A DNA stretch of 64,000 nucleotides from Escherichia coli. Lineage in GTDB: Bacteria > Pseudomonadota > Gammaproteobacteria > Enterobacterales > Enterobacteriaceae. A program made the position numbers and the translations under genes. Under the pieces are notes generated by a model. It searched no databases. It was not told the origin of the DNA and worked only from the letters and a program-made list of their open reading frames with translations. Of the stretch, positions 39,570 through 40,092 are shown piece by piece; within the stretch, counting starts at the first letter, position 1; each line of letters starts with the position of its first letter. The stretch lies in assembly GCF_044324875.1 (NCBI RefSeq), contig NZ_CP172185.1. One strand, written 5' to 3'.

Positions 39570-39729
39570 CCATCAACGAAAAAGCCCACATCTGTGGGCT
39601 TTCATATCACCAGGAGCCGCGGCTCCTTTGCGTATCCTTTTATGTCTCCTCACCGTCTGGTCGGTGTCTTGCTGAGACTGCTAACTTCCTGTTTTTGTTG
39701 GTGTTGTCCTTGCACCGTCCAATCATGAT

Positions 39730-40092
39730 TGGTGGAGCTGGCGGGAGTTGAACCCGCGTCCGAAATTCCTACGTCCTCGGTACTACATGCTTAGTCAGTC
39801 TTTACATTCGCTTGCCAGCTGCGGACGGACACGCCACTAACAAACTAGCCTGATTAAGTTTTAACGCTTCAACCCCAGGCAGGGCTTCCACGCGATCTCT
39901 TTTGGGTTTGACCTCTCTTGATCCCCGTCCTAAGAGCGGAGGCTAGGGAGAGAGGGCTCTAAGCAGGTTATTAAGCTGCTAAAGCGTAGTTTTCGTCGTT
40001 TGCGACTATTTTTTGCGGCTTTTTACGAGGCCAACCGCCCCTCGGCATGCACCTTGGGTTTCGCAAATCCCGTCGAATCCAGAATCAGCCCC
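39730..40092 (-). ncRNA. ssrA: tmRNA (SsrA, 10Sa RNA)
   Basis: 363-nt minus-strand match to E. coli ssrA: 5' GGGGCTGATTCTGGATTCGACGGG..., tag-coding stretch GCAAACGACGAAAACTACGCTTTAGCAGCTTAA (ANDENYALAA), tRNA-like 3' end ...GGTTCAACTCCCGCCAGCTCCACCA. Confidence 0.95.

Follow-up and report, generated by a model that had tools for sequence, protein, structure and literature searches.

The stretch of Escherichia coli contig NZ_CP172185.1 analyzed here (64,000 nucleotides, hereafter the window) contains ssrA, the gene for transfer-messenger RNA (tmRNA), followed at its 3' end by a short interval and the convergent autotransporter gene ypjA. Our results indicate with high confidence that ssrA is intact, that the attachment site (attB) inside its 3' end is unoccupied, and that the interval consists of the native ssrA trailer, which has five hairpins and ends in a terminator. 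This 160-bp interval is trailer and terminator, and not a spacer or neutral gap. As ssrA is a textbook integration hotspot, the original prediction had proposed that this strain carries the empty site and lacks the CP4-57 prophage of strain K-12. Its observation and interpretation were correct overall, for a feature that is already known and common.

The ssrA gene was located on the minus strand at 39730-40092 and found intact at 363 nt by both ARAGORN and Rfam. ARAGORN read the tag peptide ANDENYALAA, closed by two stop codons, and the family RF00023 matched the gene over its full length (292.8 bits, gathering score 47, model positions 1-374). The CCA end of the tmRNA lies at 39730, the acceptor stem is intact with U357 (T357) present, and the 3' end of the gene reads CGCCAGCTCCACCA. 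The gene for the tmRNA-binding protein, smpB (40307-40789, minus; PF01668 homologues), is adjacent on the upstream side. The full-length family match, the tag frame with CCA and U357, and the neighboring smpB together identify the gene as a genuine tmRNA gene. Compared with the K-12 gene, a single difference was observed, C for T at position 320. This position (window 39773) falls within the 3' strand of helix 2; T occupies it in most ssrA copies of viral contigs, and C looks like a minority allele.

Two integration sublocations were recognized at the 3' end. The last 19 nt of ssrA, ACTCCCGCCAGCTCCACCA (39730-39748, minus), correspond to the crossover region used by CP4-57/P4-type integrases (Table 1 of PMC10107115) and are present here in the unrecombined attB form. 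The adjoining GAATTTCGGACGCGGGTTCA (39749-39768, minus) is the counterpart of the annotated attP core of phage LLS, and the ssrA duplicates left by P2-like and LLS-like elements measure 39-43 nt. Elements of the P4-like, P2-like, and lambdoid types can integrate here, their tyrosine integrases using the last 19 to ~43 nt of the gene (39730-39772) as attB.

The empty state of the site was established by comparison with K-12. As originally described, the stop codon of ypjA ends at 39569 and the CCA lies at 39730, which leaves 160 bp (39570-39729). In the MG1655 record, CP4-57 occupies 2755941-2777971 (22,031 bp) and is followed by the 14-nt pseudogene psaA; from psaA, at attR, to the ypjA stop there are again exactly 160 bp, and these are the window sequence with a few substitutions. 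The window junction reads CGCCAGCTCCACCA joined to ATCATGATTGG, and K-12 attL reads CGCCAGCTCCACCA joined to AAATTCTCC. In K-12 attR, CGCCAGC-CCACCA is joined to ATCATGATTGGACGGTG, and in the window CGCCAGCTCCACCA is joined to the same ATCATGATTGGACGGTG. The window therefore combines the ssrA side of attL with the chromosomal side of attR and, with the 160 bp shared, represents K-12 minus the 22,031-bp CP4-57 and the 14-nt psaA. The alignment at ssrA thus supported the predicted empty site, with CP4-57 precisely absent. The two loci otherwise agree in the gene, the flank, the 160 bp to ypjA, the convergent orientation of ypjA, a pinH fragment, and ileY. In contrast, K-12 ssrA is followed by a CP4-57-supplied 80-nt trailer with a terminator, whereas the window has the native trailer, C at position 320, and an intact DUF5507-DUF5508 gene.

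No integrase gene follows the CCA in the window, where only the trailer and ypjA were found downstream; in the occupied genomes compared (K-12 and four others), the integrase gene begins ~165-205 nt past the CCA. The claim that the region is free of integrase genes holds for the sequence adjoining ssrA, but a 53-codon fragment of a pinH-like resolvase gene is present farther away, at 34421-34579, and the same fragment occurs in K-12 as pinH. The flank beyond the CCA also follows the attR ends of many other prophages. A partial copy of the ssrA 3' end, named beforehand as the sign of a remnant element, was absent from 34-39.7 kb and from the whole window. In a search of the 64 kb with blastn-short at word size 7, copies of the ssrA 3' end reached at most 12 nt (E 0.44), the terminal 19-mer, allowing three mismatches at most, matched nothing in the window but ssrA itself, and the degenerate K-12 form of psaA had no match in the window. 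These findings of a contiguous native flank, no integrase gene, and no displaced copy in 64 kb are those of an unoccupied attB.

A 901-nt query around the junction was 100% identical to sequences of strains CE0007a, GN06156, KK05-19, and NY1601. In CE0007a, a 141-nt junction query (70 nt of flank and 71 nt of ssrA) matches the whole genome at one location, which rules out a second copy of ~30 nt or more from the last 71 nt of ssrA, the length being an estimate of the E-value limit.

An empty site might also be one from which an element has been excised. When CP4-57 leaves the K-12 chromosome, the attR form passes to ssrA, so that the gene ends in CGCCAGC-CCACCA, T357 is deleted, and trans-translation is abolished (PMC10107115). 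This excision product resembles the window in that ssrA is joined to the ATCATGATTGG flank with no prophage between them. The window, however, has the wild-type CGCCAGCTCCACCA and keeps T357; therefore, it is not an excision scar of the K-12 type. Former occupation followed by excision, which would make the site a post-excision attB, seems quite improbable to us. It is favored by the heavy traffic at ssrA, with about half of E. coli genomes occupied and at least four types of attR, by the known excision of CP4-57 (PMC10107115), and by the fact that an element with perfect repeats would be lost without a trace. However, the window trailer is of the E. coli chromosomal type and not of a phage type, and excision is not needed to explain an arrangement that the sister lineages share. 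In E. whittamii and Escherichia sp. E1V33, the trailer directly follows ssrA, indicating that the empty state is ancestral in the genus.

The unoccupied site is also widespread. Among 5,426 complete E. coli genomes, with at least 80% of the query required in one place, the 141-nt junction query was found in 2,643 (49%) and the 901-nt query, which reaches into ypjA, in 1,634 (30%), while the K-12 attL junction query, representing the CP4-57 type, was found in 705 (13%). The gap between the two window-derived counts includes genomes like the two ypjA-less B2 strains considered below, and the remaining genomes carry other elements at ssrA. In an even sample of 40 records, the junction query had full coverage together with an annotated ssrA in 19. 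The empty ssrA site is thus an ordinary state of the species.

The native trailer occupies 39579-39729 (minus), that is, 151 nt of the 160 bp, and its five hairpins are described here by the columns of a trailer alignment (A2, see below) and by window position. H1 (columns 14-18/26-30; 39700-39716) has the loop AGGAC. H2 (columns 52-59/79-86) encloses H3 (columns 65-68/75-78; loop ACCAGA), both within 39644-39678. H4 (columns 104-108/113-117; 39613-39626) is the GGAGCCGCGGCTCC palindrome, and H5 (39579-39603) is the terminator, with a 10-bp stem (39580-39603), the loop AGAU, and the run UUUUU, all five hairpins being read on the minus strand. The two hairpins originally reported in the gap were both found: the first, AAGCCCACA..TGTGGGCTT, falls within the 10-bp stem of H5, and the second is H4. 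The folding energy of the stem at 39580-39603 is -15.4 kcal/mol for the minus and -14.3 for the plus strand (z = -4.6 and -5.9), values that none of 200 shuffles equaled. The GGAGCCGCGGCTCC hairpin alone is weaker (z ~ -2.1 to -2.4) and was equaled by 6-7 of 200 shuffles.

The hairpin at the ypjA end had been interpreted as an autotransporter terminator. It does follow ypjA, lying 10 nt past the stop codon on the plus strand, but its T-run is TTTTT on the ssrA strand versus TTT on the ypjA strand, and a stem-loop with a U-run as expected of an intrinsic terminator is predicted on the minus strand, the plus strand offering only UUU. A simple terminator scanner did not list H5, since some of the T-run is taken up by pairing within the stem. 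Moreover, the position of the terminator and the U-run on the ssrA strand are kept in genera without ypjA, and the terminator shows covariation. Therefore, the hairpin is primarily the ssrA terminator, shared with ypjA, and it could serve the two genes back to back, terminating ypjA on the other strand.

A sigma-70-like ssrA promoter was recognized by consensus match only at 40107-40136 (minus; TGGTCA, an 18-nt spacer, TATACT, and TG before the -10 element). RNA polymerase starting there would transcribe a short leader, the 363-nt tmRNA, and a trailer of ~150 nt, and would stop at the hairpin and U-run at 39579-39603. The 5' end of the tmRNA would then be cut by RNase P, and its 3' end would be made by an endonuclease and exonucleolytic trimming to CCA, processing that would free the trailer as a separate structured RNA. 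We infer this co-transcription, the processing, and any function of the released trailer from sequence.

The trailer was found to be conserved well beyond E. coli. In a scan of one genome per species, the 24-mer that joins CCAGCTCCACCA to ATCATGATTGGA across the junction was present in 14 species of more than 10 genera. The sequence can be aligned from the CCA to the terminator in Escherichia, Citrobacter, Enterobacter, Lelliottia, Klebsiella, Pseudenterobacter, Trabulsiella, Mangrovibacter, and Tatumella, and similarity breaks off sharply past the T-run. A scan of viral contigs with the central motif yielded more than 120 further loci, mostly prophage ends, in which the same trailer follows varied upstream sequences that include either an ssrA duplicate (17, ~25, or 39-43 nt) or the full gene. 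The same trailer behind so many different prophage ends indicates that it is the chromosomal B' side of the site, as in K-12 attR. With a covariance model of the trailer (R1), it was detected right behind ssrA in Proteus (~49 bits) and Providencia (45 and 69 bits), but not where an integrase gene follows ssrA.

Compensatory changes support the five-hairpin structure. For alignment A2, 46 trailer copies less than 97% identical to one another were used, and the consensus was derived with RNAalifold. In A2, 96.1% of the cells pair, compared with 37-50% when the partners are slid, and two-sided changes were seen in 10 pairs (59 cells) compared with 4-7 pairs (5-8 cells) for slid partners; none of 500 shuffles matched the observed pairing values, all of these figures applying to sequences that are related to each other and to a structure derived from the same data. 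Examples are pair 18:26 (AU in 19 copies, CG in 15, and UA in 10), pair 14:30 (AU in 22 and GC in 16), and pair 55:83 (UA in 24, UG in 14, and CG in 4). The compensatory changes thus exceed the controls, as in a conserved structured RNA, and this comparison suggests that the trailer, conserved across the Enterobacterales, is under structural constraint.

The trailer does not correspond to an RNA family in Rfam, where a permissive scan to E = 10 returned no trailer family but weak unrelated matches, mostly on the other strand. Nothing on the trailer was found in the full texts searched, although Williams 2003, 'Traffic at the tmRNA gene', may mention the conserved flank, and six literal fragments of the trailer sequence had no match in those texts.

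Other readings of the trailer were considered. Open reading frames of 28-44 codons exist on both window strands of the trailer, and a small coding sequence was rejected, with starts, stops, and frames not conserved across genera. A promoter within the trailer was not supported; a TTGGAC element resembling a -35 box is conserved but no -10 element is, in an alignment judged by eye, and a formal promoter scan flagged none. A good TTGACA occurs in the Ayreon copy only. Pairing between trailer and tmRNA was rejected as well, with duplex energies no better than those of shuffles.

Several variant junctions were noted among the contigs. More diverged trailers follow full ssrA genes in contigs L047 (991-1148) and L105 (9023-9186), where UAGGAC and the GACACCGACCAGACGGU hairpin are retained while the rest differs and the terminator is another one. 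The SmpB of L047 is 99% identical to a cluster of 1,898 sequences that is itself 90% identical to E. coli SmpB, and the contig possibly originates from Salmonella. In the attR junctions of L085, L119, and L028, a truncated ssrA is fused into the trailer (e.g., CCGCCAGC joined to CCAGGACAGCAC), and both the CCA and 6-18 nt at the start of the trailer have been deleted; these fusions look like products of imprecise recombination. Contig L011 (CACSKA010000005.1), labeled Chryseobacterium sp. 18061, carries an enterobacterial-type ssrA 3' end, GGGGGTTCAAATCCCCCCAGCTCCACCA, with the trailer, so that the label probably reflects contamination or mislabeling in the public record.

Homologues of the trailer were also identified in three cultured temperate phages, namely LLS, phiNP, and Ayreon. 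Escherichia phage LLS carries int, a gene of unknown function, the annotated attP core, a 39-nt 'tmRNA pseudogene', and then the trailer (L021, 2962-3152), which is complete with its terminator and 88% identical over 151 nt. Citrobacter phage phiNP (L023, 1-160) has 25 nt of ssrA and then a trailer copy that ends in another terminator. In Ayreon (L022, 2997-3145) and contig L063 (1761-1915), the trailer core occupies the same place in the b region, between int and the tail-fibre genes, but no fragment of ssrA accompanies it. Ayreon has lost both the H1 loop and the terminator, and its annotation places a TTGACA promoter immediately upstream. A substitute 3' end of the target gene is known from the attP sites of phage 21 and e14, which integrate at icd. 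LLS and phiNP resemble this type at ssrA, where 39 or 25 nt of the ssrA end and a diverged trailer rebuild the gene and a native-like 3' region; they differ in that the duplication reaches ~150 nt beyond the RNA gene, of which the window has the chromosomal original. Retroregulation of phage int in the manner of sib was dropped, since the phage P' arm resembles the host B' flank, so that the int transcript would have the same 3' end before and after integration.

The CP4-57-type islands examined instead supply an unrelated 80-nt trailer with its own terminator. The ACCAGA loop that the native trailer shares with the CP4-57-supplied one was judged a coincidence, being absent from other island-supplied trailers. 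In K-12, where the native trailer is 22 kb from the ssrA promoter, tmRNA works, and thus the trailer is not needed in cis for tmRNA.

Several points weigh against an unoccupied site with a structurally constrained native trailer. The 80-nt substitute supplied by the island leaves K-12 tmRNA functional, and the phage homologues leave room for some homogenization of the trailer by phage traffic. A past occupant may have been present, since clean excision of an element with perfect repeats would leave an identical sequence. The search for att duplicates in the source strain spans 64 kb of its genome. In the frequency estimate of 49%, the 80%-coverage rule lets in a small number of attR junctions whose ssrA duplicates reach at least 43 nt, for example H50, where a P2-like prophage has left a 43-nt ssrA duplicate. 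Finally, columns 1-12 of the alignment were fixed by the pattern of the genome scan and H3 by that of the viral-contig scan.

The native trailer might itself act as an RNA. It contains 6.4 GGA motifs per copy; dinucleotide shuffles have 3.7, and the opposite strand has 0.85. The motifs are conserved at columns 10, 21, 41, 61, 81/83, 93, and 104, spaced 11, 20, 20, 21, 11, and 11 nt apart, and the consensus structure leaves 5 of the 7 positions unpaired. In the window, the GGA(C) array extends over 39624-39720 (minus; A2 columns 10-106) and lacks the copy at column 61 (AAGAC). In Providencia, the 20-22-nt spacing is retained though the intervening sequence has changed. The spacings in A2 are close to whole turns of the DNA helix and also to the dual-site spacing of CsrA. 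The trailer resembles the CsrA-sequestering RNAs of the CsrB, CsrC, and RsmZ type in its GGA motifs, with 6-7 per 125 nt, mostly in loops or single-stranded segments, 11-21 nt apart, and kept in place from Escherichia to Providencia. It differs in its modest enrichment and in having GGAC more often than the CAGGAUG of the CsrB type. No CsrB, CsrC, or Rsm family of Rfam matched the ssrA strand of the trailer at E up to 10.

A second known system that invites comparison is 3'ETS-leuZ, the processed trailer of the glyW-cysT-leuZ tRNA operon, which acts as a sponge of small RNAs. The ssrA trailer likewise lies between the 3' end of a mature stable RNA and an intrinsic terminator, and it has a run of A-R-N triplets and a U-tail, which would fit an Hfq-bound trailer of this kind. 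The window trailer, a candidate member by position and sequence, is longer (151 nt) and more structured. We propose, tentatively and at less than even confidence, that the trailer is an undescribed functional RNA that would be processed from pre-tmRNA and act in trans. By analogy, such an RNA could be a sponge for a CsrA-like protein, bound through GGA(C), or an Hfq-bound RNA of the 3'ETS type. The trailer has probably escaped study because prophages cut it off from ssrA in K-12; prophages presumably separate the two in Salmonella LT2 and SL1344 as well.

A trailer without function beyond termination seems rather unlikely to us. Its conservation would then result from repeated replacement by phage P' arms, or else the trailer would be what is left of such an arm and might include arm-type integrase sites. 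The ssrA 3' fragment and trailer copy next to int and attP in LLS and phiNP, with LLS 88% identical over 151 nt, are consistent with this, as are the trailer cores at the same b-region position in Ayreon and contig L063 and the GGA(C) spacing of 11 and 20-21 nt near whole helical turns of DNA. However, the trailer variants track host lineage and flanks, with one type in E. coli with ypjA, another in the B2 strains and E1V33, and a third in Klebsiella, Enterobacter, and related genera, and the Morganellaceae have a much more diverged trailer at the same place. The trailer also stands on the B' side of unrelated prophages. The compensatory changes point to hairpins of RNA (or of a single strand) and not to protein-binding palindromes, and the strand asymmetry of the GGA motifs (6.4 versus 0.85 per copy) also speaks against a trailer without function.

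The empty site by itself matters little, since ssrA is a known hotspot and about half of the sequenced E. coli genomes are in this state, although the window is useful as a clean attB reference. K-12 represents the derived state, in which the ssrA transcript ends in prophage DNA and prophage excision damages tmRNA. The added value of the present analysis is that the gap is a conserved structured trailer with a terminator, lost from the ssrA transcript in model strains and copied by some phages, and that the ypjA-ileY block is a separate accessory segment. If the trailer is indeed a functional RNA, it would be a new product of the ssrA locus, made alongside one of the most transcribed genes of the cell, and prophage integration at ssrA would be a switch that uncouples this product from its promoter.

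The word 'empty' applies to attB inside ssrA and not to the whole neighborhood; it should be read narrowly, since the ypjA-ileY block is itself accessory. This block (28839-39578; 10,740 bp) has a G+C content of 42%, compared with 51-53% in the flanks, and carries, besides ypjA, ileY, and the resolvase fragment, a ygaQ-like gene of the amylase family and a gene with both DUF5507 and DUF5508. Neither the B2 strains 81009 and ATCC 25922 nor the sister species E. whittamii and Escherichia sp. E1V33 have the block. These four genomes have ~320-430 nt in its place; in 81009 and ATCC 25922, ~320 nt past the terminator are followed by glaH, and E. whittamii and E1V33 show the same layout of ssrA, trailer, terminator, and glaH. 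Homology with the window breaks at 28838/28839 and 39578/39579, the second break (the right edge of the block) directly adjoining the base of the ssrA terminator. The block is therefore an insertion relative to the arrangement of the B2 strains and sister species.

It appears extremely improbable that this block is a decayed island that entered at or beside ssrA, which would make the site a remnant instead of an empty one. Its absence from the four genomes named, its low G+C content, its resolvase fragment and tRNA gene, and a right edge exactly at the foot of the ssrA terminator would fit such an origin. However, the block contains no integrase gene, of the tyrosine type or otherwise, and att-like repeats and duplicates of ssrA or the trailer were absent from its edges. 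The right edge is 151 nt beyond ssrA and not inside it, and K-12 carries the block in addition to CP4-57, which indicates a separate, older event that does not occupy attB.

Within the block, ileY (31775-31850, plus) encodes tRNA-Ile(CAU) according to RefSeq and K-12; ARAGORN reports Met because the anticodon is CAT, the C of which is modified to lysidine in this tRNA. The DUF5507-DUF5508 gene (32607-34061, plus) is a single intact open reading frame of 484 amino acids, whereas K-12 annotates the two halves separately as ypjC and ypjB, and the K-12 gene appears to be disrupted. The gene ypjA (34995-39569, plus) is convergent with ssrA; its start is that of RefSeq, and the reading frame is open from 34866. 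RefSeq names it ypjA/EhaD in the genomes identical over the 901-nt query. Pfam identified eight copies of PF16168 (AIDA repeats), PF03212 (Pertactin), and PF03797 (Autotransporter beta-domain), with E-values from 4e-142 to 6e-46. These passenger repeats and the C-terminal beta-barrel are those of an AIDA-type autotransporter. In the linker between passenger and beta-domain, at 38544-38645 (plus), a tandem periodicity of 12 nt, CCnAAnCCnGAn, was observed, which apparently encodes a proline-rich repeat, and a weak Trypan_PARP-like Pfam match was recorded at the same linker.

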